A stretch of 64,000 nt of DNA, from positions 36,686-100,685 of the IMG/VR virus record IMGVR_UViG_3300045988_149331. The stretch is one strand, 5' to 3'. The stretch is from a virus. A program made the translations under genes and the position numbers. This document shows, in pieces, positions 1,694 through 60,115 of the stretch. Below the pieces are notes generated by a model that made no database searches, was not told the DNA's origin, and worked only from the letters and a program-made list of their open reading frames with translations. The first letter of the stretch is position 1. The number at the start of each line of letters is the position of its first letter.

Positions 1694-3451
1694 CTATTCG
1701 AACAACAGGGTTTCTGCCTTTTCGATCGACATTTCATCAACGTGGAGTGCGCCAAGATCAATCTCTTTGGCCTTCCACGTATCAGGGATCATGTCTTCAG
1801 CACCGAGTGTTTTGGCGCGACGCTTGATCCAGCGGCGAGCGCGTTCGGGGTTCTTAGCGTTGCCGGCGAGGCGGATGGCATTCTTCAGATCAGACTTGTT
1901 GCGGATCGGGAACGAGCCGTCGGGGAGGGCCTCCTTTTTCTTGGCGAGTTTATCGCGCTGCTCTTCGGTGAAATCGGCCTTTTCGAGCGATTCTGCGCCG
2001 TTAAGTAACTGCTCGGCCTTACTGATCGCGTCGGAGGTTTCGATCGGTTGAATGGCCTCATACGCGAGACTCTTCGTCAGCGCACGCACGGCACTCTTCT
2101 CCCACTCCTTTTGCTTCGCACCGATGAGGTTCGTCCACTCACCGCCCTGTTGGGCCATACGGTTAGAACGTTCCGTAGAGCGTTTTTCTGACAGAATGGT
2201 ACCGAAAGTACGGGTGGTAAACTTGGCGGGATCGATCTTATCCTTATTCTTGACGATCAAATCGAACAGCTCTTGGCGTTCGGCCTTGTCCTCTTCAGGA
2301 TCGTCAAGGTGAGGTGCCTGAGGTACGTCCATACTGGCGAATCGGTCTTTTAGTACCTCGATAGTTTCATCAACCGTCAGGTACACCTCCGACGAAAGCG
2401 TAGCGCGGCTGATGATAGCTTTAGTATCTTCGTTCTTGGCGAGGTTCACCAAGTCCTTGTTGGTCATGATGATGATACGTCCCGTGAATACGAAATTCGA
2501 CTTGACGTCTTCAGGGTCGCCGACGACGCGTTTACCACTGGCGGCAGTAGCTTTCTTCATGATAGAAGCCAGGTCGGCGCGGGTGATAACGGAATCGGTA
2601 TCGTCGAACAGCAGAATCTTGCCGTTGTGGGCCTTGAGTACGCCCAACAGCTGCTTCTTGGAGTTGATATCACCAAGTTCAACGTAGTCATAATCGCCGT
2701 CGCCAGGGGCGTCGGTCTCAGCGTCAAACGGACGCTTGTTGAGCAGTTCGGCGATCTTCTTGAAACCGTACGACTTACCAACGCCTGCGCCTCCGGCCGA
2801 GATCATGAAGCGTTGCTCCTTGTTGTCCAAGAACTCCAGATACTGGCGGTTCAGGTCGTACATTACCTCAACGGGCGGCTGGTAGTCGGGGTCCTTACGC
2901 TTCATCTTGTAGACGAAACGGTCGTAGGCGATACGGTCTTGGCGGTTCTGGAGTTTGTTGAATTTCTTCTGAACACGCGGGTCCTCGGGGTTGAGGAACC
3001 AGTCTTCCATAATCTCGCCATCGACGTTTTCACCTTCGCCGTCGTTAATATCAACCTTGTCTTGGGCGTTAGTAGGCGCAACGTCGTCCTGCTTGGAGGT
3101 CATCTTCAGCAGCGCGTCGAGTGTACCGGAGGTATCAACAGCCGAAGCGTCGAATTCGTCACGCGTCTTCAACTCCTCATAGGCAATCTTACGCAACTGC
3201 GCGTTGCCCTTGGGGTTGTTTACTACTTTGAGCAGATTGTCTGCGGAGGTACGCTTGGCCCACTCTTCAAGGCTGGCGGAACCGCCAGCAGAACCCGATT
3301 TACCTTCGTCGGCGGCAGGAGCCTTCTTGTTCTTGGCGTTTTTGTCGAGACGCCAGTTGAACTTTCCTGGCTTGTATTCGGTCCAAACCCACGGCTGTGT
3401 AGGGTGGTGGTCGCCGACGTTGTGTTTTGCTTTTTGGATAATGTCTGACAT
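1694..3451 (-). CDS. AAA+ type P-loop ATPase domain protein
   Basis: Walker A GGAGVGKS, Walker B ILLFDD, sensor-1-like IIIMTN, SR arginine; N-terminal module (aa 56-97) shared with the ART protein at 8165-9919. Confidence 0.6.
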   Translation of the reverse strand: MSDIIQKAKHNVGDHHPTQPWVWTEYKPGKFNWRLDKNAKNKKAPAADEGKSGSAGGSASLEEWAKRTSADNLLKVVNNPKGNAQLRKIAYEELKTRDEFDASAVDTSGTLDALLKMTSKQDDVAPTNAQDKVDINDGEGENVDGEIMEDWFLNPEDPRVQKKFNKLQNRQDRIAYDRFVYKMKRKDPDYQPPVEVMYDLNRQYLEFLDNKEQRFMISAGGAGVGKSYGFKKIAELLNKRPFDAETDAPGDGDYDYVELGDINSKKQLLGVLKAHNGKILLFDDTDSVITRADLASIMKKATAASGKRVVGDPEDVKSNFVFTGRIIIMTNKDLVNLAKNEDTKAIISRATLSSEVYLTVDETIEVLKDRFASMDVPQAPHLDDPEEDKAERQELFDLIVKNKDKIDPAKFTTRTFGTILSEKRSTERSNRMAQQGGEWTNLIGAKQKEWEKSAVRALTKSLAYEAIQPIETSDAISKAEQLLNGAESLEKADFTEEQRDKLAKKKEALPDGSFPIRNKSDLKNAIRLAGNAKNPERARRWIKRRAKTLGAEDMIPDTWKAKEIDLGALHVDEMSIEKAETLLFE

Positions 3452-3486: not shown

Positions 3487-4296
3487 CTACACCTCCACCG
3501 CGTCAAAGTCAATATCAAATTTCTTGTACACAATTCGCAACTCCGGTACGCCGTTAATTGGCTTCTTCTTTTCGTCAATACGAGCGTTCAACGGCCAGCG
3601 CTTGAGTATGATGTCGTGCGCCCGCTGCACGCGCTCCTGGCGTTCGTATACGTCTTGGAGACCGCCGCCCTGGTTGGCTTCCTTGTTCATCTTACTCTGG
3701 AGAAGGAACCGCACGAACCGCGCGTAGACGATTCCCAGGTACATGCATTTCAACGAATAGTCGATGTCGCATTTCAACTCCAACTTTTCGTCAAAGTCCA
3801 GTTCCAGCGTCCGTAGCCCCTTGAAGACGATCAAGTGTGGAATACCGCCGTACTTGAAGCGCGGGCTGACGTCGGTACAACTCCAGTCGAAGGCGCTCTT
3901 GCCCATCGTTCCATACTCAAAATCGGTTTCCATGACCTCGCGATCAAACTCCTCAAAGAACTCGCTGAGTTCTTCCGGCGTTTTCAACGACAGCCCACAC
4001 TTGGCTTCACCGTCGATCGAGTAGAAGAAGTTGGCGATGTCGTCATCCATCACCACCACCGGGTGGTTCTTGCGGAGGTAGGTGTTCTTGCAGAAATTTA
4101 CCACGTAGCTGTAGCCGCGGTTCGAGGCCGGCAGCACAATCAGCCGCTCACGGGCGTGACCCGCTTCGACGTATTTTTCAACGTCCTCCTTTTCGACCAC
4201 AATATTGTAGTCAACGCCGCCCTTTTCCAACAGTTTAGTCGTGACGCACTTGGGGCGGTTCTTGGACACGACGAAGAATTGACAGTTCATACTCAA
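3487..4296 (-). CDS. GT-A-like (DxD) glycosyltransferase-like protein, paralog of 21202-22017
   Basis: N-terminal beta-strand FFVVSKNRP, DxD motif VVMDDDI, C-terminal KCDIDYSL..NQGGG..Y segment alignable with KEDFAVAC..NAAGG..Y of 21202-22017; ATGA overlap with upstream gene. Confidence 0.35.
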   Translation of the reverse strand: MSMNCQFFVVSKNRPKCVTTKLLEKGGVDYNIVVEKEDVEKYVEAGHARERLIVLPASNRGYSYVVNFCKNTYLRKNHPVVVMDDDIANFFYSIDGEAKCGLSLKTPEELSEFFEEFDREVMETDFEYGTMGKSAFDWSCTDVSPRFKYGGIPHLIVFKGLRTLELDFDEKLELKCDIDYSLKCMYLGIVYARFVRFLLQSKMNKEANQGGGLQDVYERQERVQRAHDIILKRWPLNARIDEKKKPINGVPELRIVYKKFDIDFDAVEV

Positions 4297-4973
4297 AAGG
4301 GTAATTCACCTTCGGACCATATTTCCTCGGGTGGGTTTTGTTCTATGAAACGTTGATATTTGTCTATCGTAGGCTCCAGCGACGGGTAGAACCTAAAGGC
4401 AAGTTCCCACTTGACGTCAAACATATCGTCGCACGGGACTTTGCGCTTCATCAACACATTTTCGTTGTTGTAGCACTGAATTGTGACTTGCTGACGGCCA
4501 CGCGAAGTGTACGAATAGGGAAAGTCGCGATAGTACTCAGCCAGCGAAACCGTATCTTGAACAACGTCGTGAATGAACTGATTGAAGGGGTGTCCCAGCC
4601 CCAACGGCGCCAATACGGTATAACCACGGTTGCGTCGTAGGAAACGACGCAAATGGTCGCGAAGCGTTTGTTCGGCGAAATTAAGCGTGTCAGTTCCGTA
4701 TTTAGTTCTGAGGTACGTATAGACGCTGGAGAGATTAAAGTCCTTGAAATGGTCGCCAAAATCGCTACAAATCGCATCTTCGAACCCAGTGTCGAAGACA
4801 TCCATCGTAATACCCATGAATTCATAGAGCGATCGCTGTTCTACAACGCGGTTTGGGTCGCTATCTACAGTAAGCACCCGAACGTCATATTCGGGTGCTA
4901 CTAAAACGTGACAAGCGCTCATCAGGAGATCACCCGCGTGAGGCTCGACACACAGGTACTTTATTTTTCCCAT
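4293..4973 (-). CDS. PIG-L/LmbE-like deacetylase-like protein
   Basis: N-terminus LCVEPHAGDLLMSACHVL..DVRVLTV resembles the (v)aHPDDe..gG..L...V.vv.lT signature of PIG-L family; overlaps both neighbours. Confidence 0.4.
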   Translation of the reverse strand: MGKIKYLCVEPHAGDLLMSACHVLVAPEYDVRVLTVDSDPNRVVEQRSLYEFMGITMDVFDTGFEDAICSDFGDHFKDFNLSSVYTYLRTKYGTDTLNFAEQTLRDHLRRFLRRNRGYTVLAPLGLGHPFNQFIHDVVQDTVSLAEYYRDFPYSYTSRGRQQVTIQCYNNENVLMKRKVPCDDMFDVKWELAFRFYPSLEPTIDKYQRFIEQNPPEEIWSEGELPF

Positions 4974-5920
4974 GGCCGCTTGTAGATTTTCTCAGCGCAG
5001 GGGCCGTCTTTCGACACGTCCTCAGCCATCTTCCGGATTTCCGGCGTGATAGGCGGCAGCGTTTGCTTACCCATTTTGTCAGGCAGGAAGCCGACGCGGA
5101 CGCTTACGTGCGTACACCCCTGACACGGGCGGAAGCGGCGGTCGTTGTTGTACAGCATGACACGGGCGGCGTGAAAGCGCGGGTGGTTCCACAGGTCTTC
5201 GATGGGCATGTCGTGGATGTTGGCGATTGGGTACTCACCGCGGAAGTCATCACAGCACAGACACACCTGGCCATTCCACCTCACGTCCAGTTCGCGGAAC
5301 GGGAAGGTGCACCGCTTGTTGTTGAACGAATCGTCAAGCGGGAAGGCCGCGCCGCAGTGGTTGGCCAGGCGACGTGTCATCTTGTTGGTGTCGTCGTGGG
5401 CGATAGGCGGCAGCAAGCAGATACGACGGCCCTGCTTGGGGTAGTAGTACGGAACGCCGGGTTCCAGCGTCACGACGTTGTACTTATCAACATCGATCTT
5501 CTCGACGAAATTCCAGTCGCCGTTGGCCGTGTAGCAGTCCACCAGAATATCGTTCATACCTGCTCCGAACAGCGCGTCGAGGTACGCCTCGGTGTCTTCA
5601 GCGTGGTTCATGGCGTAACCGTTACTGTACATATGAAACACAGCCTTCGGCAAGTGCTTGCGGAACGTGGCGACGATGTCGATGAAGGCAGGATTCAGCG
5701 TCGGTTCGCCGTGCATAGCGAACACGAACTTACAGTTCCAACCCACCCGCGCTACCTCCGAAGCAATACGCTCGGCCGTTTCGACGGTCATGAAATTCCA
5801 GGGCTTGGTCCCCTTTTCACGCATACCGTGTAAACCGCAGAACGAACAACCGAGGTTACAGCCCTCGGTAGGTTCAATCTGCATGGTAAACGGGGGGTCT
5901 TGTACGATTTTGTTTTTCAT
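4961..5920 (-). CDS. radical SAM enzyme with SPASM/twitch-like C-terminal Cys-rich domain
   Basis: CNLGCSFC (CX3CX2C) at aa 21-28, GEPTLNP SAM-binding motif, C-terminal C..GQVCLCCDD...CQGC cluster pattern. Confidence 0.8.
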   Translation of the reverse strand: MKNKIVQDPPFTMQIEPTEGCNLGCSFCGLHGMREKGTKPWNFMTVETAERIASEVARVGWNCKFVFAMHGEPTLNPAFIDIVATFRKHLPKAVFHMYSNGYAMNHAEDTEAYLDALFGAGMNDILVDCYTANGDWNFVEKIDVDKYNVVTLEPGVPYYYPKQGRRICLLPPIAHDDTNKMTRRLANHCGAAFPLDDSFNNKRCTFPFRELDVRWNGQVCLCCDDFRGEYPIANIHDMPIEDLWNHPRFHAARVMLYNNDRRFRPCQGCTHVSVRVGFLPDKMGKQTLPPITPEIRKMAEDVSKDGPCAEKIYKRPWEK

Positions 5921-6852
5921 TATTTTGTAACTTTAATGTTGAGTTTCACGTTCTTTAACTTTGGGTCTTTGAACTGACGCTTGACGGGCTTGGTGAAAGC
6001 GCGGGTTGCGGGGTCCCAATCGAAATTATCAGGCTTGTAATTAACCTGACACCGGCAGTAGGGGTGCGTCGGGTTAATCGTAGGGAGCCACTCTGCCGCC
6101 TTACGACCGATGTTGTTACCGTTAGCGATAAGGTCCGCCAAACGGAACAGTTTCGGTTTCGAGGTAGGGTCCTCGGGGTCTTCTAAGTACAACTCCCGGC
6201 ACTTAGCGCACGCGCCTGGATAGACGTCGAAATACACTTTGGCGTCAGGCCCGTGTTGCTTGAAAATACTTTCAGCACGGCCCACGTTGTAGGCTTCGTG
6301 CAGGAGATAGTACGCAATACGCAGCCAATCGCGTCCCCAGTCTTGGGTAAGGTTTCCCAGTTCGCTGGCTACATAGCGCGCCCCCTTACGGAGTTGAACG
6401 GCTTGAATGGCCTTATCTTTGATTTGCTGGCGTATAGCGGCCTGCTGACGGAAATTCGACTTGAGGATGGTGTTGCGTGTCCCGGTGACGATACGGTTGC
6501 CAAGCGATGTGATGTCGGTGTAGGCGCGGTTCTTGAGGTAATTGAGGGCGTTCTCTTCCTGTTCAGTGAGCGGTACAAAGTTTCCTGATTTCAAGAACTG
6601 AAGAAACTGTTTGTAGTTCATCTTCTTGGCGCGGGTATCGCCGATAGCCTCAGCCAAGATTCCAAACAGAAAGGCGTGTTCGATTATACCCTTAGAGTTC
6701 TTGTACTTATCGACGTTGACGCCTGACGCCACCAAGATGTCGATCTCCGACTGGGTCAGAAAATCCAATCCGACGTGCTTAGCAATAAACAGGTACTGCC
6801 AGCGCCGGAGAATACCGACCATGTCGTCTATTTGGCGGTTATTGAAAATCAT
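5920..6852 (-). CDS. Mu F / SPP1 gp7-like minor head (virion-internal) protein
   Basis: C-terminal NPTHPYCRCQV matches the HPxCRC signature of Phage_Mu_F family; 1-nt overlaps with both neighbours. Confidence 0.5.
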   Translation of the reverse strand: MIFNNRQIDDMVGILRRWQYLFIAKHVGLDFLTQSEIDILVASGVNVDKYKNSKGIIEHAFLFGILAEAIGDTRAKKMNYKQFLQFLKSGNFVPLTEQEENALNYLKNRAYTDITSLGNRIVTGTRNTILKSNFRQQAAIRQQIKDKAIQAVQLRKGARYVASELGNLTQDWGRDWLRIAYYLLHEAYNVGRAESIFKQHGPDAKVYFDVYPGACAKCRELYLEDPEDPTSKPKLFRLADLIANGNNIGRKAAEWLPTINPTHPYCRCQVNYKPDNFDWDPATRAFTKPVKRQFKDPKLKNVKLNIKVTK

Positions 6853-7490
6853 CAGTCTTCAGTGCTCCAAGAGCCGTCGTTTTTTAATTCCCTGGCTTTT
6901 GGTCCATCAGATACAGTCTTCTTGATACCATATTCCCCAGGGCGTTCGTTTTCTTCACTCCGTACCTTGTTCGCAGTTTCCGCCGCTTTTTGATACGAAC
7001 CACTCTTTACCTTCCGTAACAAACGAATGTCTTCTATCTTTATGGAATTTGGATATTTGCCCCCTATTTTGTTAACAAGTCCGTCTATTTTCACCTCAAA
7101 GCTATCGCCATCGCGGCTAACTATCTTCCCAACTGAATATGAATGATAACCGGAGCCGTTATTAACATGAACAATTACGACATCGCCATGGCTTAAATCG
7201 GAAGGTTCAACCTCGTGTCCTGAATTAAAATCCTCAACGGTGTACTGGTACAGTTTCTTGTTAGGTAATTTAATTGGCTTGAACTTAGGTTCTTTGTAAG
7301 GCATCCCAACGCGCCCTAATTTCCGATTTTCAGACGTGTCGGCGTATCGCCCGGTCTTCGAACGGGCTTTCTCCAACGCATCGCCGTCGGTTAGGTTTCC
7401 TTCAAAAGCACCTATGGCTTTACACAAGTGGTCGTGGCGATATTGATTGGCTTCATGAAATGCCCTCGTCACTTCATCTACTACTCCCAT
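6852..7490 (-). CDS. hypothetical protein with EKAR..Y.D...NRKLGRVG module and SH3/Tudor-like beta domain
   Basis: aa 40-65 LEKARSKTGRYADTSENRKLGRVGMPY matches aa 29-55 of the ART protein; C-terminal GDVVIVHV..YSVGKIVSRDGDSFEV beta-barrel-like repeat. Confidence 0.5.
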   Translation of the reverse strand: MGVVDEVTRAFHEANQYRHDHLCKAIGAFEGNLTDGDALEKARSKTGRYADTSENRKLGRVGMPYKEPKFKPIKLPNKKLYQYTVEDFNSGHEVEPSDLSHGDVVIVHVNNGSGYHSYSVGKIVSRDGDSFEVKIDGLVNKIGGKYPNSIKIEDIRLLRKVKSGSYQKAAETANKVRSEENERPGEYGIKKTVSDGPKARELKNDGSWSTED

Positions 7491-7993
7491 AATCTTACTC
7501 GTGATTCATGGCCGTGTTTAACGGCAATTCTACCGTTGTTAAGGTCGATTTCAACGCTCTTATCGGTAAGTGCAACAACTTTTCCAGGCTTATAACAAAA
7601 CCCATTTTCAGCGTTCCCCAACTTGACGATAACAGCTCTGTACTTGGTGAGTTCGGAAAAGTCTTTGATCTTGATGGCTTCTTCGTCAAACATCTTTTTC
7701 CAAAACCACTCGATATCAGGCCAGAGGCGAACCTCTTCGTTAACCCCTAACGACGCTGTAATCGGCGCACCATTGGGGAACAAATTCACCTCACACTTAC
7801 CATCACTGACGCGTGATAGCGTACCGATGTTATACCTCACCTTCCCCTTATCATCCTTCACGCGAACGATGACTCGTACAGGGTAAGGCGGTGTTACCTT
7901 CAACGCGCTGTTAGCAGCGATTGTTGTGCCGATATGCCAAATCTTCTCAGCCTTCGCTGCTGACACGGCCCAAATTATTTTTCTTTGGTCCAT
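7481..7993 (-). CDS. hypothetical protein, two tandem SH3/Tudor-like beta-barrel repeats
   Basis: Two internal repeats of pattern V.V......G..Y..G.v....d...E..L..G.......e.vRLW. Confidence 0.5.
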   Translation of the reverse strand: MDQRKIIWAVSAAKAEKIWHIGTTIAANSALKVTPPYPVRVIVRVKDDKGKVRYNIGTLSRVSDGKCEVNLFPNGAPITASLGVNEEVRLWPDIEWFWKKMFDEEAIKIKDFSELTKYRAVIVKLGNAENGFCYKPGKVVALTDKSVEIDLNNGRIAVKHGHESRVRLWE

Positions 7994-8165
7994 CTTCCTT
8001 TAATTCTTTTACCGCCGCAGCCGTAGCGTCGGCGATGTATTTTAGTACATCGCCTAACGCAGCGGCGTTGTTGGCGTTCCATTCGCGGATAAACCGATCT
8101 TCGTACTGAGTAACGGTGGGGAATGGCGACGGCAAAAAGTGGGTATGTTTGGCGTTGTAAGGCAT
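7947..8165 (-). CDS. hypothetical small protein
   Basis: 72-aa ORF whose ATG overlaps the ART gene stop (TAATG at 8163-8167); 3' end overlaps next gene by 47 nt, so uncertain. Confidence 0.3.
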   Translation of the reverse strand: MPYNAKHTHFLPSPFPTVTQYEDRFIREWNANNAAALGDVLKYIADATAAAVKELKEDGPKKNNLGRVSSEG

Positions 8166-9919
8166 TACTCTTGTTTGCTATCTTCCGGCAACCATTCCAT
8201 TAAGACACGATTTCCTTCAATCTTATGGACCTTATAATTTTGGTCTCGGCCAATTAAAAATTCCCCCTCCTCTCCTCCGTAAACCCCTACTACTGGAGCA
8301 ACCGGGCAACCCGCGGGAGCGATAATATCAAAATACATAGTCCCCTCGTCGTTGCTAATTTCAGGATAACATGTAGTGCTCATGAACGACTTATCGCTGA
8401 ACACCTCCCCCTCCTTGAGATTTTTAACGAAATTATCTGCATCGTTTTCAAACGTAAGTTTCCTGTATAAAACGATATTTTGTCCCACTTTATTTTGAGA
8501 AATAAACGTATCAATTCCGTTTATGAATTTATCCATTTTATCAGACGATACATCGACTTTGTTGCCGTAAAGGTATTTTCTCATTACAGCAAAGTCAAGA
8601 TCATCATCTTCGTCAAAATCGTCATCATGGTCTGCGGAATATAAAACAATAGCTTTTACTGCATCCGAATCGCTTTCGTCCATGAAATCCTCATAAGCGT
8701 CAACAATCTTATCAAAGAATTCAGTTGCATCGTCGCTGTTTAATCGTATGAATTTTTCGCCGTTTATGTCCAACCCACTTTTCCGTAAAGCCCATTTGTA
8801 CGCTCTATCGGCCTTTTTGAGAACTTTTTCATTCGCCTTGTCAGAGGGTAATCGCTCAATGTTTTTCGCAGTACTGTCGCCTGATAATGAAATATTAAAA
8901 CGTTCATTATCTGCTTCAAATTTCTTTTGTTCTTCTGCTTTTTCCCTTTTAACATCCTCGCTTTTTACCCAAAAAGCGATAGCGTCGTCTTTTGTGTCTT
9001 CAGGCACGATATTATTTCTTTTCAAGACATCAATCGCCTTTTTAGATAATTCTTCGGGGGTTAATTTATACTTTGAATACTGTTCGTCGGTCTTTCGTAA
9101 TTTACTCAAAAAGATGCCAGCTATCGTCTTTGGTGTATCGCTACCTCGTACTTGATCCAGCAAATCTTTTTCGAATTTCTCATCAACGGCATCTTCGTCT
9201 TTATTGTCGTCATCCTTTTCACTACCCTCCCTGGCGTCAGGATCGCCGAACTTGGACGCGGCTCCCTCGACGTCAGCGATCTCCTTCACCGTCGTGGTCT
9301 CGAAATTGTCAACATCGGCGTAGGGGTATTTGTCCACGCGGTAGCCTTCGCTGGTCTTGGTGACTACCAGATCGAAGCCGTCTTCGTCGCCGCCGACCTG
9401 CTTGATGAACGCGTGAGAAGCGTCTTCGACTCCAGCGTACTGCTCCAGGTCCTGGTCGTCCATCTGACGGAAGCCCATGGACTCAAACGAGGCCGTCGCC
9501 TTGGCGTCACCGTCAGCCAGGCCGTTACGCAACGAGGCGTCGCCCTTCTTGTTCTTGGCGCGAACGTTCACGCCGCGGCGTTCGAGTTCTGCGGTGGCCA
9601 CCTTGCGCATTTCAGCGTCAGCCGACGGATCGTTAGCCACTTTCACCAACGCCTCCTCCGAAGCCGAGCGGGCATGATTCTGGAGGCTGACGTTGCCTCC
9701 GGGAACGCCACCTTCACCCCCCTCAGCCGCGGGGTCTTTCTCCTTGGCTGCGTGACCGTACTCCTGACCCACACGTTGCAAGCGGCGGTTTTGAGCGTTG
9801 TCGGTGTATACACCGTGACGCGCTTTTTCGATTTCTACCTCTTCAGTTTCGGGGATGTTGACGAACCCCTTGAGGATTTGCTGTCGTTTTGCCTCACCGT
9901 AGTTGATAATCTCTTTCAT
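8165..9919 (-). CDS. C3/VIP2-type ADP-ribosyltransferase domain protein (MuF-associated toxin-like)
   Basis: C-terminal R-STS-ExE triad: VLYRKL, SFMSTT, GEEGEFLIG; long acidic linker; N-terminal shared modules. Confidence 0.75.
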   Translation of the reverse strand: MKEIINYGEAKRQQILKGFVNIPETEEVEIEKARHGVYTDNAQNRRLQRVGQEYGHAAKEKDPAAEGGEGGVPGGNVSLQNHARSASEEALVKVANDPSADAEMRKVATAELERRGVNVRAKNKKGDASLRNGLADGDAKATASFESMGFRQMDDQDLEQYAGVEDASHAFIKQVGGDEDGFDLVVTKTSEGYRVDKYPYADVDNFETTTVKEIADVEGAASKFGDPDAREGSEKDDDNKDEDAVDEKFEKDLLDQVRGSDTPKTIAGIFLSKLRKTDEQYSKYKLTPEELSKKAIDVLKRNNIVPEDTKDDAIAFWVKSEDVKREKAEEQKKFEADNERFNISLSGDSTAKNIERLPSDKANEKVLKKADRAYKWALRKSGLDINGEKFIRLNSDDATEFFDKIVDAYEDFMDESDSDAVKAIVLYSADHDDDFDEDDDLDFAVMRKYLYGNKVDVSSDKMDKFINGIDTFISQNKVGQNIVLYRKLTFENDADNFVKNLKEGEVFSDKSFMSTTCYPEISNDEGTMYFDIIAPAGCPVAPVVGVYGGEEGEFLIGRDQNYKVHKIEGNRVLMEWLPEDSKQE

Positions 9920-15308: not shown

Positions 15309-15632
15309 TCAACCCAACATTTTCAAAATGTCGTTGCAGGCCGTTTTCCTGATTATCAACGCTTGATGAACGATATCTCCCCACACCGCCAACTGATGAC
15401 CGCGCCATGAGTAGTAGTCGGTTTGGTCATCGTACGAACCTTGCCACTCGCCTTCGCTGCGTATAGTAGCCACCAAACGGCGAAATGCTCGCTGTTCGTC
15501 GGTAGTGAGGGGTGATATAAAAGTGCCGACGACTACTAATCGTGCGGCACTCGTTGTTAGATCATCGGCTAACGTTTGAAAGTTAATGCCCATGAACTCA
15601 CCTGTCTCTAATGGGGTATGAAAAGTTATCAT
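15309..15632 (-). CDS. hypothetical protein
   Basis: Co-directional ORF, 4-nt overlap with upstream gene. Confidence 0.45.
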   Translation of the reverse strand: MITFHTPLETGEFMGINFQTLADDLTTSAARLVVVGTFISPLTTDEQRAFRRLVATIRSEGEWQGSYDDQTDYYSWRGHQLAVWGDIVHQALIIRKTACNDILKMLG

Positions 15633-16639
15633 TCGCCAACCAATTTTACAGTTCGTGGTTCAAAAGTAGAGCGTTGCTTACCTTCACCGATGCGCATCTT
15701 CCAGTATTTTTGATATTCACACAACCACATCTCGATCTGGTGAAGGGTTATATTGCCGTGAGGCGTTGTGTAATATCCTGCTTCGAGTTTGTGCCAGTGT
15801 AGGTACGGAAAATCTCCAAATGTCGCCAACGCCACCTGCGCTTCATCACGCAGACGATAGATACCGTCAATTTGACGTTTCAACGACGGGAATATTAACC
15901 GCAACCCAATCGACGCCCCAGGCCCCACGTTAGTGTAGTCATCCTGAGTGAAACGCATGAAACGCCGATATGTATATCGCGGTATATAGGTGAAATCTTG
16001 ATAGAATTCGTGAGCGATGAATGCAGCCGATGACGGAAGCCCCTGAAGGAACTTGATGATCTGTTCAGGAGTTTGGGCCGTAAATACCATCTTGATGAGT
16101 TCACCCAAGCGACGGTGTAACGTAGGCACTACCAGATGGGTGTAACAGTAATCACGCGGTTTACCCGGCGTGGCCATGGAATTGATGAGATATGCCGTGG
16201 TGTAGGGGTTGTTCCCCGAAGCGCGGTACGACGTTATCATCTCTGCAAAAGCGTCTTCGTCGTAGCTGTCGTAATCTGGAATACCAGCGCCCCAGCCATA
16301 CTTATCGCGAGCGTATTCAAAAGTACTGGGGTTGTTGAAATACCGGAACACCATCATCTTCCACACCAAGCTGGCTAACGACAATGAATCATCCAACAGA
16401 ATATTTCGAATTTGCCACTGGGAATTTCGATCCAGTTCGCGGTACACGTTAGTGAACTTGTAGTCGCGCAAAATAGGGTCTTCAGTCCAGGGGCGTGGTT
16501 GGTGATCGATGAAACGTCGTTTCCAGATCATTTGCCGCTCAAACATCGTGCGAAAGAACTCCGTGCGGTGTTCGTCGCTCACGTCAAGCGTATCAGATGG
16601 GAGTTTGTCACTCCAAGAATAGTGATCAAAGTTTGCCAT
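15629..16639 (-). CDS. alpha-glutamyl/putrescinyl-thymine pyrophosphorylase (aGPT-Pplase)-like DNA base hypermodification protein (candidate)
   Basis: N-terminal MIWKRRFIDHQPRPWTEDPILRDYKFTNVYRELDRNSQW matches my recollection of the R..W.RR....PWT.DPIL...KFTNV(F/Y)R.LDR.SQ signature of this family; needs HMM confirmation. Confidence 0.45.
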   Translation of the reverse strand: MANFDHYSWSDKLPSDTLDVSDEHRTEFFRTMFERQMIWKRRFIDHQPRPWTEDPILRDYKFTNVYRELDRNSQWQIRNILLDDSLSLASLVWKMMVFRYFNNPSTFEYARDKYGWGAGIPDYDSYDEDAFAEMITSYRASGNNPYTTAYLINSMATPGKPRDYCYTHLVVPTLHRRLGELIKMVFTAQTPEQIIKFLQGLPSSAAFIAHEFYQDFTYIPRYTYRRFMRFTQDDYTNVGPGASIGLRLIFPSLKRQIDGIYRLRDEAQVALATFGDFPYLHWHKLEAGYYTTPHGNITLHQIEMWLCEYQKYWKMRIGEGKQRSTFEPRTVKLVGE

Positions 16640-19799: not shown

Positions 19800-20073
19800 A
19801 ACAATCCATCACTAAATTTCCCGCCAACTCCAACTCATACAACCGTTCAGCATCAGGCTTGGCGTAACAGAATATCAACTTTCCACCGCCCGCAGCCCGC
19901 AACGCTTTACGATACGTCGCCTTGATGCGGGCCAACTCTTCGCTTCGGTAAAAATCGTAGTCGCTTACACACAACTCCCACCACCGCTCTTGCCGCGACG
20001 CCCAGGCTATGACTCCTGGGCGTTCGGCTTCAATCCGCTTTACAGCAGCTAATAACAGCGCGTCGTGTTTCAT
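19798..20073 (-). CDS. hypothetical protein
   Basis: 91-aa ORF, 4-nt overlap with upstream gene. Confidence 0.45.
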   Translation of the reverse strand: MKHDALLLAAVKRIEAERPGVIAWASRQERWWELCVSDYDFYRSEELARIKATYRKALRAAGGGKLIFCYAKPDAERLYELELAGNLVMDC

Positions 20074-20657
20074 AACGTTTCGTCGATAGACTGCGCCAAC
20101 TCAGCCAACAGCCTTACGTGTACGCGCTCGTCGGCGATAATCTTGTTGAGGAGTTGAACCGCCAACGTAGAAGTAGTGGTCGGCGTAGGGTTGCCTGCTT
20201 GGATGCGCTGGATGAGTTTTTCGTACTCAGCGATGGTGTCCTGCTCGGCGCGAATATTGATCTGGATGGCTTCAGCCGCGCTTTCGGTCGTTATGTCCAC
20301 TTTGGCTGCCGAAAACACAGGCTTCGATACCGCGTGACCCAGATGGTGAATGAAGTCGCCTAATCGGTCGTAGTGCTTCATCTCGGTGAGGGCGATACCC
20401 AGGAACGTTTCGCCAATCTGATCGAAAAGCATCCGCTGTTGGGTGTATTGGATGATGGCGGTGAGTTCGGACGTTCCGGTAATTCCGGCGTAGACTTTGT
20501 AGAACCACTCGGCCGGAACGCCGTCGTCGGCTTTAGCCTTGGAGATGTCGGGATAGTCAATCGCGTGGTCGGCGTAACGCATCGACTCTACCAGCGCGTC
20601 GGCCATGATTTCGACGTTGTCCTGCTTGGCGGGTTGGTGTACGAGAATCGTTTTCAT
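20070..20657 (-). CDS. ferritin-fold di-metal carboxylate protein (Mn-catalase/CotJC-like)
   Basis: Four-helix pattern E...ExxH...E...ExxH: SELTAIIQYTQQ, LTEMKH, RAEQDTIAEYE, ADERVH. Confidence 0.5.
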   Translation of the reverse strand: MKTILVHQPAKQDNVEIMADALVESMRYADHAIDYPDISKAKADDGVPAEWFYKVYAGITGTSELTAIIQYTQQRMLFDQIGETFLGIALTEMKHYDRLGDFIHHLGHAVSKPVFSAAKVDITTESAAEAIQINIRAEQDTIAEYEKLIQRIQAGNPTPTTTSTLAVQLLNKIIADERVHVRLLAELAQSIDETL

Positions 20658-20659
20658 GA

Positions 20660-21205
20660 CTATTTGGTTTCAGGTTCTTGGCTCTTGACGGTCGATCCCC
20701 ATCCTGCTTCGCCGCGAGCGCTGGGCGTGAGTTCTTCGACGAGTGTAGGTTCAATCAACGGCGCAGGCACAATCACCAGCTGAGCAACGACGTCGCCCTT
20801 CTTGTACGCCTTACATTCGTACGACAGCTCCCGCATTTTGAAGTCGGCGATAGTCCCTAAGACGTTGGAGAACAACACCGCCAAACACCGCGACATACGC
20901 TGCCACAGCGTGGGCATGTGATAGATCTTTTTGTAGCGTACCAGCATCTCGCCACGGTACCCCGGGTCGATAATACCCGGCGCGTTACACATCACCAGGT
21001 CCATCTTCGACACGCGCGAGTTGGGGACCAGCAACCCGCTGTACCCTTTGGGAATTTCAACGGCGATTCCCGTCTGGTACTCGATGAAATCTTCGGTTTC
21101 GCGTACTCCAACGGCTACCAGGTCCAAGCCGTTATCCTCGCCATCGGCGTGGGCATACGCCGGCAACGTGGCGTTGGGGTTGAGTTTCTTGAATTTTACG
21201 TTCAT
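20660..21205 (-). CDS. dut: dUTP diphosphatase (trimeric dUTPase) with about 30-aa insertion
   Basis: Motifs DNGLDL, GIIDPGYRGE, GDVVAQLV, RGEAGWGST; insertion between motifs III and IV. Confidence 0.85.
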   Translation of the reverse strand: MNVKFKKLNPNATLPAYAHADGEDNGLDLVAVGVRETEDFIEYQTGIAVEIPKGYSGLLVPNSRVSKMDLVMCNAPGIIDPGYRGEMLVRYKKIYHMPTLWQRMSRCLAVLFSNVLGTIADFKMRELSYECKAYKKGDVVAQLVIVPAPLIEPTLVEELTPSARGEAGWGSTVKSQEPETK

Positions 21206-22017
21206 TTCTTGTATCCTTTTAAGTGTATTTTGACCTCGATCATCTCACGGTCCTTCATTTCACCACCCCAGTTGGTACACTTTTTGGTACGGAGGGTGAT
21301 GTACTCGGGGAACGCTTCTCTTAAACGTTGTGATTCGGCGTTGGAGTTCTCGATCGTACGATAAATCGAACAACCACCAGCGGCGTTGGCTCCCGTCATT
21401 TTGTCGAACGAATACTGATACGAGACGATATTATCCAACCCCGCGCGGCGTAATCCACACGCCACGGCGAAATCCTCCTTTATGGGCCAATCGCTGAACC
21501 TGACAGGCTGACTTAGATACTGGGCGATATTGAGGCCCCAAATGGAGAAGAACCGCCCGTTTATTTGTACGTCGTGTTCCTTGTCGCGGTTGAACGGACG
21601 GTATGAAAGCGCAGCCACGGCGTAGGTGTCTAACTGCTCAGCCACCCAGTCGAACATCATCTGGTAGATGTATTCCTGCGCCTCGACGGTGAAATTGTCG
21701 TTGTTTACGACCACAGGGGTCTTGGCATCGTCTAAACGCAACGAGAAAGACACGTTATCGTCTAAGAAAAAGACTCCTCCAAATCCCCTATCAACGGCCT
21801 CTACAACAATATAGTCCCGTATGTCCCCCACGCCGCGACACGCCGTACTGTATTCCTCGATACTGGCTACTTTTCCACCCCAGTTGCGCTGGTGAGCCGC
21901 CAACTCGCCGGGGTGACAGAATATGTGGACGCGCTTCAACGCTTCAGGCGTCAACCGTTGAAGAGTTTTTTGGCGGTCAACACGACCTCGTGTGAATAAG
22001 GCTATCAGAGTTTTCAT
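21202..22017 (-). CDS. GT-A-like (DxD) glycosyltransferase-like protein, paralog of 3487-4296
   Basis: LIALFTRGR, FFLDDNV DxD-like motif, KEDFAVAC..NAAGG..Y alignable with 3487-4296; ATGA overlap with dut. Confidence 0.35.
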   Translation of the reverse strand: MKTLIALFTRGRVDRQKTLQRLTPEALKRVHIFCHPGELAAHQRNWGGKVASIEEYSTACRGVGDIRDYIVVEAVDRGFGGVFFLDDNVSFSLRLDDAKTPVVVNNDNFTVEAQEYIYQMMFDWVAEQLDTYAVAALSYRPFNRDKEHDVQINGRFFSIWGLNIAQYLSQPVRFSDWPIKEDFAVACGLRRAGLDNIVSYQYSFDKMTGANAAGGCSIYRTIENSNAESQRLREAFPEYITLRTKKCTNWGGEMKDREMIEVKIHLKGYKK

Positions 22018-26840: not shown

Positions 26841-26922
26841 CACCCGAGTTGCCGTTCCTATTTACACTCCCGAAACTGCCGACAATGGGCGAACTGCCAC
26901 AACATTCCGTCGGGTGAAAAAG

Positions 26923-26994
26923 TTGATCTGGAAGGGTTCGAACCTCCAATACGAGAACCAAAATCTCGTGTGTTGCCCATTACACCACAGATCA
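26923..26994 (-). tRNA. tRNA-Gln (anticodon UUG)
   Basis: Hand-folded cloverleaf: acceptor TGATCTG/CAGATCA, D stem GTGT/ACAC, anticodon stem CGAGA/TCTCG, loop TT-TTG-GT, T arm GGAGG-TTCGAAC-CCTTC, discriminator A; no encoded CCA. Confidence 0.85.
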
Positions 26995-36189: not shown

Positions 36190-36729
36190 TTAGATGAACT
36201 TACGAGCGATCCACTGGATGTACTCCTGTTCCACAGCAGCACGTTCGGCGTCACCGCGTTGACTCTTTTGTTCACAGATATACGCCCGTTTAGCGATCTC
36301 GTAGCAGGTGTCGTTACTCATTTGTTCCATCATCCACTGGTAGGCGTCAAACGTTTCGTCGTGGATGATATTAGTCACCATGGCGCTGGCGTCGTGAAGG
36401 TCGATCGTGACCAACGGAGTGCAAGGGTTGTGTGAACGTTTAGGGAACAACATCAACCACTTACGGTACGCACCTTCGTTGTACTGCTCGATGCCGCGGG
36501 TGACGATAATGCCGTTGGAAAGACACTCACGGTGACGCTTATATGCCTTGTACGCTCGCTTGTGTATACGCTGTACTACCTCGTTCCACGACATTTCGTC
36601 AGGGGTGATTTTCTCTAACCCCAACAGGTAGCGACACCAAAAGAACGACGGACGGTATTCCCACCACGTTACAACGACAATAGCCAGCGCACACGCCAGT
36701 GCGGCGAATAGGGTGAATTTATCCTCCAT
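36190..36729 (-). CDS. hypothetical protein with N-terminal TM segment
   Basis: FTLFAALACALAIVVVTWW hydrophobic N-terminus. Confidence 0.5.
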   Translation of the reverse strand: MEDKFTLFAALACALAIVVVTWWEYRPSFFWCRYLLGLEKITPDEMSWNEVVQRIHKRAYKAYKRHRECLSNGIIVTRGIEQYNEGAYRKWLMLFPKRSHNPCTPLVTIDLHDASAMVTNIIHDETFDAYQWMMEQMSNDTCYEIAKRAYICEQKSQRGDAERAAVEQEYIQWIARKFI

Positions 36730-56447: not shown

Positions 56448-57345
56448 TTCTTCCTTGGTTTCATTCCATACCAAAAACCGTCGGGGAGCGGACTGTCCTT
56501 CGGTATAACAGTATTTATTTCACCATTAGTTATTCTAACTTTGCCTTGCATAGGATTCGTGTATCCTTGTTCGTATTTTACGCGAAATTTTTCCCTTAAC
56601 GCCTGACGTTGTTCCGCCGACCAACGATTATTCCAATTCGGATTGTTCTCACCTGCATAGCGGCCCTTCATTTTGGCAGATAATTGCGCCTTTTGCTCCG
56701 GCGTCCAGTAATTACCGTAGTTTGGATTCTTTTCGCCGGCATATCGACCTTTTAAGGTTTGTGAAATTCTTTTCTTGTAATCGGTATTATCCAAAGTCAT
56801 TTGACGCTTTTGATGAATTCTTTTCATCACTTCCGGATGATCCTTGAATGTCTTTTTAAGCGAACGTGAAACTTTAGCCGCAACCTCTGGTATCAACACG
56901 GGCGAACCGCTTCCAAACTTATTCGCCGAACCCGGTAATATGTTGTAGCCAATCTTTTTATTGGCGGAATCGAATTTCTTGATGTAGAGCATCTCCCAGG
57001 CGTCGAGTTGTAGTTGAGTGTCGCAAATGCGAAGTGTTTCGCGCTTGAAGTTCTTTCGGCCGTAACGCTTAATCGCGTTCGTCAAAGATATGCCGCTACC
57101 TAAATAACCATCAAACTCATCCGTATCGCACCAGTGTTGGCCTATGTAAATTCTTCCATTAACGAGGTTTGTCGTTTTGTAAATTATACCTTGCATAAAG
57201 TCCGCAATTTATCAATATCAATGTCCAGATCTATATTTGACAAATCGCAGTCTATATCTATTTCCTCGCCATTACGAAGAGGAATTTTAGCGTTTTCGGG
57301 CAATCTAAACTTGCCATACCCCTCAATTTCCAAATCCCAAAATTT
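56394..57345 (-). mobile_element. 952-nt insertion splitting dnaE: candidate group I intron or free-standing HEG cassette
   Basis: Removing 56394-57345 joins ...FLNSNRVTVP to DVDADF..., gap-free against the E. coli RVSMPDFDVDF. The upstream exon would end in U (57346) and the insert would end in G (56394). Confidence 0.35.
56444..57196 (-). CDS. GIY-YIG homing endonuclease inside the dnaE interruption
   Basis: GIIYKTTNLVNGRIYIGQH...GSG; NUMOD3-like GEKNPNYG / GENNPNWN; C-terminal VRITNGEINTVI..PLPDGFWYG. Confidence 0.85.
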   Translation of the reverse strand: MQGIIYKTTNLVNGRIYIGQHWCDTDEFDGYLGSGISLTNAIKRYGRKNFKRETLRICDTQLQLDAWEMLYIKKFDSANKKIGYNILPGSANKFGSGSPVLIPEVAAKVSRSLKKTFKDHPEVMKRIHQKRQMTLDNTDYKKRISQTLKGRYAGEKNPNYGNYWTPEQKAQLSAKMKGRYAGENNPNWNNRWSAEQRQALREKFRVKYEQGYTNPMQGKVRITNGEINTVIPKDSPLPDGFWYGMKPRKK

Positions 57346-58888: not shown

Positions 58889-60115
58889 CTACAAAATTGT
58901 ATTCGGGTCCGCGTTAGATAACCTTGCCGCGAAGAAATTGCGCGCCAGCATTAGGTAGTCCCAACGCGCATCGACTTGATAGTAACTCGGCATATAATCG
59001 ATGATCGAGATACTGCTTTTCAACAGCTGATCGCGATCCTCCGGCAGGCACCCACCGCGATTACGCTTATAGGAGATGTACGCCTTCAACAACTGATACA
59101 CGGCCGAAAAATATATCGACTTTTCATGGACGTATCGCTGGAATCCAGCCTCGTCTTCTGGATCGCCACCGTCGGCGTTACGGTTGAGCAGACGGGTGAT
59201 CATCTCCTCCAGGAATACAGTTATTTCACGCAGGCGGTTTACCGGCACCTCGGACTCGAAATCAAAGTCCATCATGTACGAAATAGCTTCGTTGTAAAGC
59301 CCCATTTGTGCCGAATTAACAGGATATTCGGCGTTGGTGAAAAGGTCGAACATCTTCTCGGTAATGTCGTTCCATTCGTAGACGTGAAGCGACTGCGAGT
59401 TATGAGTCTGAACACCCAACTCAATGCCCAGACACAGCGACATTATCTCCGTCAGGAACGAAAACTGGAAGATGTTCGTAGGGAGACCCCAGTGAAGGTC
59501 ATTCGAACGATTCTGGACCGTGGTAACGAGTTTACCGTCGCGAATTTTCAACATCACCATATCGTTACACGGCAGGTCCTTGGTCTTCACACCGAGGTCG
59601 AACTTGGGGTTCCAAATCGACATCACCACCTGCCGCGTATCAGGATCAGCCGACAGTAAGCGTATCGCCTCTGCAACCTGATCCAGTCCAGTATCGGCCG
59701 ACTCGCTTTCCGAAGCAATTCCCCAGTGGCGCAGGCGCCACCCGTAGGGAGCATGAAACGTTTCGCCGTTGTCCGAAAAGTCAGCCATCCGGCTATTGAA
59801 GATCGTCAGGAACTCAACGTCCTTACGACCCACGGCGATCCACATCGCTTCAGCCAGCAGGAAGAACACGTTGATATTACGACCGTACCCGCCCACGCAG
59901 CGGCGATAGGGGTTGGTGATAACGGTCTTCACGTCCAGCAGTTCGCGCACCTTTCCGCCACGTGAATTACGCCACGGCAGTTTACGTATCGTATCGTTGA
60001 TGTACGGATACAACTGGGCAAATGATCTGCGGGGATCGGTGACGTAAGTCGTTTGACTTTCAAGTTCACTGACTGAAACGCCATCAACGGACTTGGATAT
60101 TGTTTCTTCTTTCAT
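58889..60115 (-). CDS. divergent thymidylate-synthase-fold enzyme (candidate dUMP hydroxymethylase or thymidylate synthase) with long C-terminal extension
   Basis: FHAPYGWRLRHW, DPDTRQVVMSIWN, catalytic LPCN, NRSNDLHWGLPTNIFQF align with ThyA YGxQWR, DPDSRRxIxSAWN, PCH, QRSxDxxLGxPFNI; 408 aa versus about 264 for ThyA. Confidence 0.65.
   Translation of the reverse strand: MKEETISKSVDGVSVSELESQTTYVTDPRRSFAQLYPYINDTIRKLPWRNSRGGKVRELLDVKTVITNPYRRCVGGYGRNINVFFLLAEAMWIAVGRKDVEFLTIFNSRMADFSDNGETFHAPYGWRLRHWGIASESESADTGLDQVAEAIRLLSADPDTRQVVMSIWNPKFDLGVKTKDLPCNDMVMLKIRDGKLVTTVQNRSNDLHWGLPTNIFQFSFLTEIMSLCLGIELGVQTHNSQSLHVYEWNDITEKMFDLFTNAEYPVNSAQMGLYNEAISYMMDFDFESEVPVNRLREITVFLEEMITRLLNRNADGGDPEDEAGFQRYVHEKSIYFSAVYQLLKAYISYKRNRGGCLPEDRDQLLKSSISIIDYMPSYYQVDARWDYLMLARNFFAARLSNADPNTIL

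Follow-up and report, generated by a model that had tools for sequence, protein, structure and literature searches.

Three overlapping genes of an uncultured gut phage lie on a 64,000-nucleotide stretch of the IMG/VR virus record IMGVR_UViG_3300045988_149331 (positions 36,686 to 100,685; this whole stretch is hereafter called the window). They encode a radical S-adenosylmethionine (radical SAM) enzyme, a protein with the PIG-L/LmbE fold and a glycosyltransferase. It seems rather likely that they form a modular cassette that glycosylates the phage's own hydroxymethyl-pyrimidine DNA and tailors the sugar. This proposal draws on family and fold assignments, loss of catalytic motifs, conserved gene order, gene fusions and the pattern of selection, all of which are observed directly, and the chemistry is proposed from them. 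A preliminary description of the same DNA had presented the three genes as a functionally linked operon that would attach a sugar of the N-acetylglucosamine (GlcNAc) type, deacetylate it and then subject it to radical chemistry.

The three enzyme families

The glycosyltransferase of the cassette is a GT-A member of the TAGT (TET/JBP-associated glycosyltransferase) family. It matches the Pfam TAGT profile (PF20691) over positions 3-203 of 205 (5.3e-13, 49.8 bits for a cut-off of 27.5), as well as phrog_842, 'beta-glucosyl-HMC-alpha-glucosyltransferase' (1.1e-16). The DxD-type (DDD) motif of GT-A enzymes is found as MDDD; VVVMDDDIANFF is present and is kept in the fusion protein P0142 described below. 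The ratio of non-synonymous to synonymous substitutions (dN/dS) among close relatives is 0.022. The paper that defined TAGT and the 5-hydroxymethyl-deoxyuridine (5-hmdU) DNA kinase 5-HMUDK is reportedly that of Iyer et al. in 2013. Judging from its family and its gene context, the cassette enzyme would transfer a sugar, its acceptor being hydroxymethyl-pyrimidine DNA itself or a sugar that this DNA bears already. PF20691 includes the enzyme of T2/T6 by which glucosyl-5-hydroxymethylcytosine (glucosyl-5hmC) receives a second glucose (PMC13216743). Furthermore, phage GT-A enzymes, whose predicted structures resemble that of the base-J glucosyltransferase JGT, put a hexose or an N-acetylhexosamine (HexNAc) on 5hmC in DNA (bioRxiv 10.1101/2023.12.21.572611). 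The window encodes a second, very divergent TAGT-family glycosyltransferase, which shows no BLASTP similarity to the first. It adjoins genes for a dUTPase/dCTP-deaminase-like protein and a ferritin/rubrerythrin-like protein, and its subfamily (TAGTb) adjoins homologs of the radical SAM enzyme in other phages.

The radical SAM enzyme belongs to the radical SAM superfamily, with Pfam matches to Radical_SAM (PF04055; 1.8e-15, 58 bits for a cut-off of 29.5) and, above the Pfam cut-off, to SPASM (2.6e-12). Among 65 homologs, the CX3CX2C motif (C21-x3-C25-x2-C28) is invariant and the only other conserved cysteines are C204, C222, C223, C266 and C269, arranged as C204-x12-G217-x4-C222, C223, C266-x2-C269. 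The seven-cysteine motif of two-cluster SPASM enzymes (CX9-15GX4C...CX2CX5CX3C...C) was not found in these homologs, no cysteine being present at +6 or +10 after the CX2C. Five additional cysteines without CX2CX5CX3C imply one auxiliary Fe-S cluster, as in twitch domains, and not two; the Pfam SPASM match persists because the model covers twitch domains too. The cysteine spacings in the homolog alignment (18-19, 43-44, then CX2C) agree with those of the auxiliary cysteines of BtrN, which we take to be C169, C188, C232 and C235.

Structure comparison gives the same answer. An alignment-based AlphaFold2 model of high quality (predicted local distance difference test, pLDDT, 92; pTM 0.91) matches radical SAM structures. 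Its top Foldseek match is BtrN (4m7t; E 7.8e-13, BtrN-normalised TM 0.81, root-mean-square deviation, rmsd, 3.4 Å), while the next families (CteB, anSME, PqqE, SpeY, DesII, EpeE) are found at E 4e-08 or worse with rmsd of 7-15 Å, the TM of the next family being 0.35. BtrN is also the top match among PDB sequences (1.4e-08), and the NCBIfam model N_Twi_rSAM is matched at 1.2e-10, below its cut-off. The enzyme is thus a BtrN-like twitch enzyme with a single auxiliary cluster and not a peptide-type SPASM maturase. Its dN/dS among close relatives is 0.029.

These data bear on two other readings of this enzyme. According to the first, it would be a SPASM-type maturase acting on a small phage peptide (a RiPP, a peptide synthesized by ribosomes and modified after translation), which the two other gene products would decorate. 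The Pfam SPASM match and weak NCBIfam peptide-maturase matches point in this direction, as does an open reading frame (ORF) of 70-78 codons found just upstream of the radical SAM gene, after the MuF-like gene, in some lineages (L052, L078 and their relatives). However, the homologs have five conserved additional cysteines, hence one auxiliary cluster, and CteB, anSME, PqqE and SkfB match far worse than BtrN (rmsd 8-15 Å). The small ORF is not conserved, and the window lacks it: there, the start of the radical SAM gene overlaps the stop codon of the upstream gene. A peptide-maturase activity was rejected on cysteine content and structure, and this reading of the cassette appears very improbable. 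It is still harder to believe that the enzyme is a viperin-like maker of modified nucleotides, serving defence or counter-defence and unrelated to the glycosyltransferase. The matches that would suggest it, to pVip of PADLOC (7e-4, residues 18-115 only) and to the NCBIfam viperin model (0.0038), are weak and confined to the generic radical SAM core. Viperins are devoid of a twitch domain, their structures match at E about 1e-3 compared with 8e-13 for BtrN, and the linkage of the radical SAM gene to a glycosyltransferase gene is near-universal. This identity was therefore rejected as well.

The middle protein of the window has no direct match in Pfam, PHROG, NCBIfam or PDB, and its single-sequence AlphaFold2 model (pLDDT 40) is unusable. 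A profile made from its close relatives retrieved 87 relatives among 1.84 billion representatives. Pfam PIG-L (PF02585) is matched by 17 of the 55 aligned relatives (best 1.4e-16), and the family profile matches the GlcNAc deacetylases Dbv21 (1e-15) and Orf2* (1.1e-13) of PDB over nearly its full length; besides these teicoplanin enzymes, chitobiose deacetylases are matched. This proves that the protein belongs to the PIG-L/LmbE family. The profile and structure searches called for in the preliminary description have thus borne out its classes, namely radical SAM, PIG-L-like and GT-A; only the SPASM label has to give way to twitch.

The family motifs PH(S/P/A)DD, GHPxH and YRDFPHSYK are near-invariant among the aligned relatives. 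At the positions of the first two, the window protein has PHAGD and GHPFN, so that the catalytic motif of PIG-L/LmbE enzymes, (A/P)H(P/S)DD with HxxH, is absent from it. Decay goes further in close relatives (PQAGD, SQAGD, GNPFN, GQPFN), while all the PIG-L-like partners outside the clade of the window keep the canonical residues. In the same way, a second set of loci has the canonical motif in 34 of 34 loci without the radical SAM gene and in 15 of 30 loci with it, the 15 others being loci of the window's close-relative group. By comparison with MshB, in which the His and the second Asp presumably bind zinc, the first Asp acts as general base and the last His of HxxH binds zinc, the window protein would have lost its general base (Asp) and one zinc ligand out of three. 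The dN/dS of the gene among close relatives (0.155) is about five-fold above those of the two other genes and still indicates purifying selection. The window protein is probably catalytically dead or repurposed, and the loss of the Asp and the His makes a deacetylation step doubtful in this phage.

Gene order, fusions and exchange within the cassette

The overlaps pointed out earlier are all present. The stop codon of the upstream gene and the start codon of the radical SAM gene share TAATG at 5918-5922, the radical SAM and PIG-L-like genes overlap by 13 nucleotides (4961-4973), and TTGA at 4293-4296 contains both the PIG-L-like stop and the glycosyltransferase start. Public gene calls use for the latter an ATG at 4288-4290, 2 nucleotides past the PIG-L-like stop (267 codons), and a gap of 35 nucleotides separates the glycosyltransferase gene from the next one. 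These overlaps are not peculiar to the trio. The whole window is coded on the minus strand only, and genes overlap at 31 of its 72 junctions, 13 of them by 4 nucleotides. Promoter-like sites (9 for 6.8±2.7 expected, using the sigma-70 consensus, which may not apply if the host belongs to Bacteroidales) and terminator-like sites (9 for 11.7±3.6 expected) occur at chance level. These counts give no evidence of a separate operon; together with overlaps that are typical of the genome, they indicate that the trio is part of a long co-directional late block. The features of the cassette and of its surroundings are given in Table 1.

Table 1. Cassette genes, slot borders and predicted DNA-modification genes in the window.
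Feature	Position	Strand	Length or evidence
BtrN-like radical SAM enzyme of the twitch type, one auxiliary Fe-S cluster	4961..5920	-	319 aa
PIG-L/LmbE-fold protein, degenerate catalytic motif	4293..4973	-	226 aa
TAGT-family (PF20691) GT-A glycosyltransferase	3487..4296	-	269 aa from TTG or 267 aa from ATG at 4290
Weakly MuF-like head protein, one slot border	5920..6852	-	310 aa; sub-threshold Phage_Mu_F; kept in 68 loci
P-loop protein, other slot border	1694..3451	-	585 aa; Walker A/B-like motifs; conserved neighbour
Second, very divergent TAGT-family glycosyltransferase	21202..22017	-	Pfam TAGT 1.1e-12
5-hmdU DNA kinase (5-HMUDK)	15629..16639	-	Pfam HMUDK_hel 3.9e-51, 174.5 bits
Thymidylate-synthase homolog, uracil-type; probable dUMP hydroxymethylase	58889..60115	-	Pfam Thymidylat_synt 8.5e-23
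dUTPase/dCTP-deaminase-like protein, likely dUMP supplier	20660..21205	-	Pfam dUTPase 2.3e-09, DCD 1.1e-05
Ferritin/rubrerythrin-like protein	20070..20657	-	

A scan with the alignment of the radical SAM enzyme found 78 viral loci, whose homologs (38-100% identity) form 37 clusters at 90% identity; their neighbours were labelled with hidden Markov models (HMMs) built for this analysis. A glycosyltransferase gene lies within three genes of the radical SAM gene in 31 of the 37 clusters (17 TAGT-type, 14 GT-B-like). A PIG-L-like gene is near in 19 clusters, and PIG-L-like proteins are fused to TAGT in three more loci (L086, L095, L121). A thymidylate-synthase homolog is encoded within three genes in six clusters. 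The 5-HMUDK gene directly adjoins the radical SAM gene in L096 and L126 and belongs to the same gene cluster in L127 and L130. Outside the head module, the order is HMUDK-rSAM-TAGT-portal in L096, HMUDK-TAGT-PIGL-rSAM-rSAM-TAGT in L127 and TAGT-rSAM-TS in L128 and L130 (rSAM, radical SAM gene; TS, thymidylate-synthase homolog). In L115, the dUTPase and ferritin-like pair that lies near the second TAGT of the window recurs after the radical SAM homolog, and a DNA N6/N4 methyltransferase gene lies within the cassette or next to it in L048, L117 and L119. Around the few radical SAM homologs without a recognised glycosyltransferase, a Pfam scan found dUTPase, ferritin-like, UvrD helicase and AAA_24 neighbours, five other neighbours having no Pfam match.

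One group of PolA phages (L054, L104-L116; about 35-53 kb) carries TAGT, the radical SAM enzyme, a 141-aa kinase-like protein and a thymidylate-synthase homolog beside PolA, PDDEXK and SNF2 genes. The Asp of this thymidylate-synthase homolog is that of the cytosine type, and the four genes are predicted to make up a minimal pathway for a radical-SAM-tailored glycosyl-cytosine.

Two fusion proteins join the members of the cassette in pairs. P0135 consists of a radical SAM part (46% identity over the full length) and a PIG-L-like part, and P0142 of a PIG-L-like part and a TAGT part, its C-terminal half being 52% identical to the cassette glycosyltransferase. Fusions from metagenomes may be frameshift artefacts, but they display at least the same gene order at 46-52% identity. 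With the synteny of the radical SAM gene at 38-100% identity, they uphold the functional link proposed between the three genes.

Close relatives, on contigs of about 100 kb, have 87-100% identity in the radical SAM enzyme, 72-100% in the middle protein and 94-100% in the glycosyltransferase, except that in four of these loci (L003-L006) the glycosyltransferase is replaced by a 495-aa protein. This replacement shares 51% identity with a 482-aa protein from a far more distant relative. For its family, several sub-threshold matches were obtained to Glyco_transf_4/5 and to Glycos_transf_1, which correspond to the two halves of a GT-B enzyme of the GT4 type, and nothing meaningful was found on comparing its profile with PDB sequences. 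A census of the slot, made by scanning with the MuF-like protein and retaining 10-kb flanks, covered 68 loci. The commonest content is PIGL-GTB (GTB, GT-B-like gene) without the radical SAM gene (22 loci, and 7 more with an inserted ORF), followed by rSAM-PIGL-GTB (about 18) and rSAM-PIGL-TAGT (17). Six of these 17 loci were mis-split by ORF picking, a full-length PIG-L-like gene being confirmed in four. GTB stands alone in one locus, and the slot is empty in two (L188, L213), where the flanking genes are kept. The cassette is therefore modular and not a fixed trio. The preliminary description was right about linkage and synteny in related phages, but the trio is not conserved as a unit, since the glycosyltransferase can be exchanged for a GT-B-like one and many relatives do without the radical SAM gene.

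The ORFs inserted between the PIG-L-like and GT-B-like genes (181-253 aa; L157, L164, L165, L176, L192, L203) have, as judged by eye, GIY-YIG-like N-termini (GIIYK...Y[VI]GQ), which makes them probably homing endonucleases. Owing to these motifs, they were set aside as further tailoring enzymes.

The slot lies between two conserved genes. The 310-aa protein on one side carries an HPYCRC motif; Phage_Mu_F is matched below threshold by 4 of 14 homologs (best 0.0016), and the family profile finds nothing meaningful among PDB sequences. In some close relatives (L135, at 5532-7532; L152-L155, L166, L168) this protein has 666-711 aa instead of 310, an intein (Intein_splicing and DUF559) being inserted. 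On the other side, the 585-aa protein has Walker A-like (GAGVGKS) and Walker B-like (LLFDDTD) motifs, a match to phrog_1250 (1.7e-11) and a weak one to AAA_30 (0.039). It ends with a 'ALPDGSFPIRNKSDLKNAIRLAGN' motif (residues about 505-545), and its HMM also labelled several other head-module ORFs in relatives, which suggests a shared motif or module. The location given earlier, between a MuF-like head protein and an AAA+ ATPase, is thus acceptable in that the upstream protein is weakly MuF-like and the downstream one is a P-loop protein; membership of the latter in AAA+ is not established. As to the placement, which had been called unusual, it recurs throughout this phage group, and DNA-glycosylation clusters beside structural genes have already been reported (bioRxiv 10.1101/2023.12.21.572611).

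This placement raises the possibility that the cassette glycosylates and tailors a virion or ejected protein (MuF-like, internal or capsid) and not DNA. In the 68 loci, it occupies a single slot, from the MuF-like gene to the 585-aa P-loop gene, inside the portal-to-major-capsid block; one neighbour has an ADP-ribosyltransferase toxin domain, and some GT-A enzymes glycosylate capsids, as in PBCV-1 (cited in bioRxiv 10.1101/2023.12.21.572611). However, the cassette glycosyltransferase is a member of the TAGT family. Moreover, the radical SAM enzyme and TAGT are found elsewhere in replication or nucleotide-metabolism modules with no structural genes nearby, and the cassettes of L048 and L119 contain an inserted DNA methyltransferase gene. 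Since the two empty slots retain their flanking genes, the flanking proteins can be made without the cassette. A virion target hence seems unlikely.

Several proteins of the neighbourhood deserve mention. The 584-aa protein encoded at 8165-9919 (-) has a C-terminal ADP-ribosyltransferase toxin domain (2.2e-09) and shares an N-terminal NR[KR]L[GQ]RVG motif with the 212-aa protein encoded at 6852-7490 (-). These two genes and the one at 7481-7993 vary more than the cassette among close relatives (31-99% identity) and are sometimes absent. Selfish elements occur elsewhere in the window. Intein domains of the Hint and LAGLIDADG types are present in a 906-aa protein (22037-24757, -). The gene for DNA polymerase III alpha is divided between two ORFs, which an intein signal and an ORF of 250 aa separate (53604-56474, 56444-57196 and 57184-58887, -). 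SegE-type GIY-YIG and NUMOD3 endonuclease matches fall in these parts of the window (22037-24757; 53604-58887). A single tRNA-Gln (anticodon TTG) is located at 26922-26994 (-).

DNA modification genes and the proposed pathway

The 5-HMUDK enzyme is a marker of thymidine hypermodification. The window contains both the 5-hmdU DNA kinase and a thymidylate-synthase homolog of the uracil type. The latter keeps the catalytic Cys, aligns 'GLPTN' with 'GLPFN' of the E. coli enzyme and has Asn at the position of the uracil-specific Asn177 of E. coli, whereas the T4 dCMP hydroxymethylase has Asp. In nearly all related loci with enough flank, 5-HMUDK is encoded upstream of the cassette, as is the portal protein. 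Such a gene set suggests a phage that exchanges thymidine for 5-hmdU and then modifies it further; gene sets for thymidine hypermodification built on 5-HMUDK have been described (PMC5889632, PMC8989533). At the same specificity position, the thymidylate-synthase homologs beside pairs of radical SAM enzyme and TAGT of the TAGTc type have Asp (cytosine type), whereas those of the HMUDK loci and of the window have Asn. As the radical SAM and glycosyltransferase pair occurs with homologs of both types, the radical SAM enzyme most likely acts on the sugar and not on the base.

The cassette, expressed late, would hypermodify the phage's own DNA with a tailored sugar. In a first step, thymidine would be replaced by 5-hydroxymethyl-dU, made before replication and incorporated into DNA, as is suggested by the genes for the uracil-type thymidylate-synthase homolog, the dUTPase-like protein and the 5-hmdU DNA kinase. 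Then the TAGT GT-A enzyme, given its family, would move a sugar from a host nucleotide-sugar to the 5-hydroxymethyl group in DNA or to a first sugar set by the second TAGT. In most relatives, an intact PIG-L/LmbE enzyme would next convert HexNAc into an amino sugar by de-N-acetylation, a step probably lost in the window phage. In these relatives, PIG-L is paired with a GT-B (GT4-like) enzyme, as in the mycothiol, bacillithiol, glycosylphosphatidylinositol (GPI), teicoplanin and butirosin pathways. Finally, fold and cluster content suggest that the BtrN-like radical SAM enzyme would remove a hydrogen atom from one of the sugar carbons, most likely with the result that a secondary alcohol is oxidised to a ketone; epimerisation or dehydration is less likely. 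Its substrate could be either the sugar on DNA or the nucleotide-sugar donor. The presumed benefit would be DNA shielded from host nucleases, and the exchange of glycosyltransferases among close relatives would reflect a diversifying pressure. The sequence of reactions proposed earlier, a GlcNAc-type sugar, its deacetylation and radical chemistry, fits pathways that combine GT4, LmbE and BtrN enzymes, but its deacetylase is degenerate here.

A more precise version is offered tentatively, being somewhat doubtful. The radical SAM enzyme may act directly on a sugar already attached to hydroxymethyl-pyrimidine double-stranded DNA and yield a keto, epimerised or rearranged sugar, and relatives with an intact LmbE enzyme may bear a cationic amino sugar on their DNA. 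If true, 'glyco-DNA' would for the first time be seen to undergo radical chemistry, and thymidine and cytidine hypermodifications would gain a new class. This class would be widespread among uncultured phages living in anaerobic habitats, abundant phages of the human gut (with Bacteroidales as possible hosts) included.

Another explanation is that the enzymes make or remodel a small molecule or a host glycoconjugate, such as an aminoglycoside-like or thiol-like glucosamine conjugate or an envelope glycan. The PIG-L-like family profile does match the teicoplanin and chitobiose deacetylases, the substrate of BtrN, whose structure fits best, is a free aminocyclitol, and the GT-B-like partner has weak GT4-type matches. 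However, the radical SAM family appears restricted to phages when searched in 185,579 bacterial and archaeal species, and no gene for the synthesis of an acceptor is present. In addition, a TAGT and the GT-B-like enzyme can stand in for each other in the same slot, and the radical SAM gene is tightly linked to thymidylate-synthase homologs, 5-HMUDK and nucleotide kinases. A small-molecule product is thus quite improbable, even more so than a virion target. DNA bases, a virion protein or glycan and a peptide had all been offered as targets. Only DNA gains from the TAGT family, the 5-hmdU genes and the neighbours of the radical SAM homologs; apart from the points given above, nothing was found in support of a virion protein or a peptide.

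It should be emphasized that several points weigh against glycosylation of the phage DNA. DNA is a predicted acceptor, deduced from homology and gene neighbourhood. Pairs of GT4 and LmbE enzymes normally act on small molecules or lipids, and the GT-B-like partner is recognised through sub-threshold glycosyltransferase matches, with no match among PDB sequences. As the PIG-L-like protein of the window is without its catalytic residues, this phage cannot carry out all three steps in the form proposed. The 5-HMUDK gene is present, yet no Pfam family of the aGPT-pyrophosphorylase was found in about 84 kb of the roughly 100-kb genome (window ORFs of at least 90 aa and precomputed Pfam matches for about 20 kb beyond both ends). 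Finally, this phage group always has the cassette within the genes for head morphogenesis, flanked by the MuF-like gene and by putative internal proteins, a position that would suit a virion-protein target too.

Distribution and comparison with known systems

Phages that carry the cassette are common in public metagenomes, a protein of the window being indexed in 120 blocks of the assembly collection (81 of these with contigs of 50-200 kb); none of them has been cultured or is represented in GenBank. Among the 50,697 phage records of GenBank, blastn with the trio gave no match and tblastn found no homolog of the radical SAM enzyme (E 1e-5) or of the PIG-L-like protein. In GTDB, with one representative genome for each of 185,579 bacterial and archaeal species, the only close match of the radical SAM family (96% identity) is on CAAEIL010000161.1 (L215), a 10-kb contig in a human-gut Bacteroidales metagenome-assembled genome. 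This contig is probably phage DNA binned with its host, and it is this confinement to a single phage-like contig that makes the family appear phage-restricted. It also hints, weakly, that the host is an anaerobic member of Bacteroidales, which would be in keeping with an enzyme sensitive to oxygen.

Phage DNA hypermodifications decide attack by restriction enzymes, CRISPR nucleases and DNA glycosylases, and they have yielded useful enzymes for epigenetic sequencing. To our knowledge, the sugar modifications of phage DNA are made by glycosyltransferases alone, sometimes with epimerases, and the only radical SAM enzyme that installs a DNA modification is M6 gp53, unrelated to that of the window. 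From the cassette, one would predict that DNA carries amino, keto or epimerised sugars, produced by radical chemistry that is independent of oxygen. Its relatives constitute a natural set of variants, with or without the radical SAM gene, with TAGT or GT-B, with an intact or degenerate deacetylase and with precursor enzymes of the uracil or cytosine type. No description of a twitch radical SAM enzyme combined with an LmbE-fold protein and a DNA glycosyltransferase was found in the searchable literature. A survey of DNA glycosyltransferases in metaviromes mentions 'annotated viperins' near glycosyltransferase pathways, 'radical' being absent from its main text (bioRxiv 10.1101/2023.12.21.572611). 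Given the weak pVip matches of the window enzyme, one may speculate that some of these proteins belong to its family.

The closest known systems are those of phage DNA glycosylation by TAGT/GT-A enzymes (T2/T6, GT-A enzymes of metaviromes) and the trypanosome JGT that makes base J. They share with both window glycosyltransferases the family PF20691, and with the window the DDD motif and a thymidylate-synthase homolog supplying the hydroxymethyl pyrimidine. They differ in that the acceptor predicted for the window derives from 5-hmdU and not from 5hmC. Furthermore, none of these systems couples its glycosyltransferase to a radical SAM enzyme and a PIG-L-fold protein.

The hypermodification systems based on 5-HMUDK (M6, ViI, PhiW-14, SP10; PMC5889632, PMC8989533) likewise have 5-HMUDK and a gene resembling a dUMP hydroxymethylase, and their tailoring genes are modular and combinatorial. 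The gp53 protein of M6 provides the precedent of a radical SAM enzyme that installs a DNA modification, but it resembles spore photoproduct lyase, whereas the window enzyme is a BtrN-like twitch enzyme. In addition, the aGPT-pyrophosphorylase, the pyridoxal-phosphate (PLP) enzyme and the amino-acid logic of these systems were not detected in the 84 kb or so covered here, where sugars would be appended instead of amino acids.

The pairs formed by a GT4 and an LmbE enzyme (MshA/MshB, BshA/BshB, PIG-A/PIG-L, teicoplanin GtfA/B with Orf2*/Dbv21) resemble the commonest architecture of the relatives, a PIG-L-like gene with a GT-B-like gene, and PH(S/P/A)DD and HPxH are kept in the PIG-L-like family. 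In contrast, this family is phage-borne, and in the window the partner is a GT-A enzyme (TAGT) and the Asp and the His are lost.

The same three enzyme classes are found together in biosynthesis of the butirosin/neomycin type, where BtrM is a GT4 enzyme and BtrD a deacetylase of the PIG-L family. The succession of GlcNAc transfer, de-N-acetylation and, with the twitch radical SAM dehydrogenase BtrN, radical oxidation of a carbinol carbon is the logic that the cassette may follow. However, the window radical SAM enzyme is only 20% identical to BtrN and about 70 residues longer, the predicted acceptor is DNA and not 2-deoxystreptamine, no aminotransferase follows the oxidation, and the window deacetylase is degenerate. 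The cassette would join a known type of phage DNA glycosylation to an enzyme logic (GT4, LmbE and BtrN) known from aminoglycoside and thiol pathways, and this joining is what would be new.

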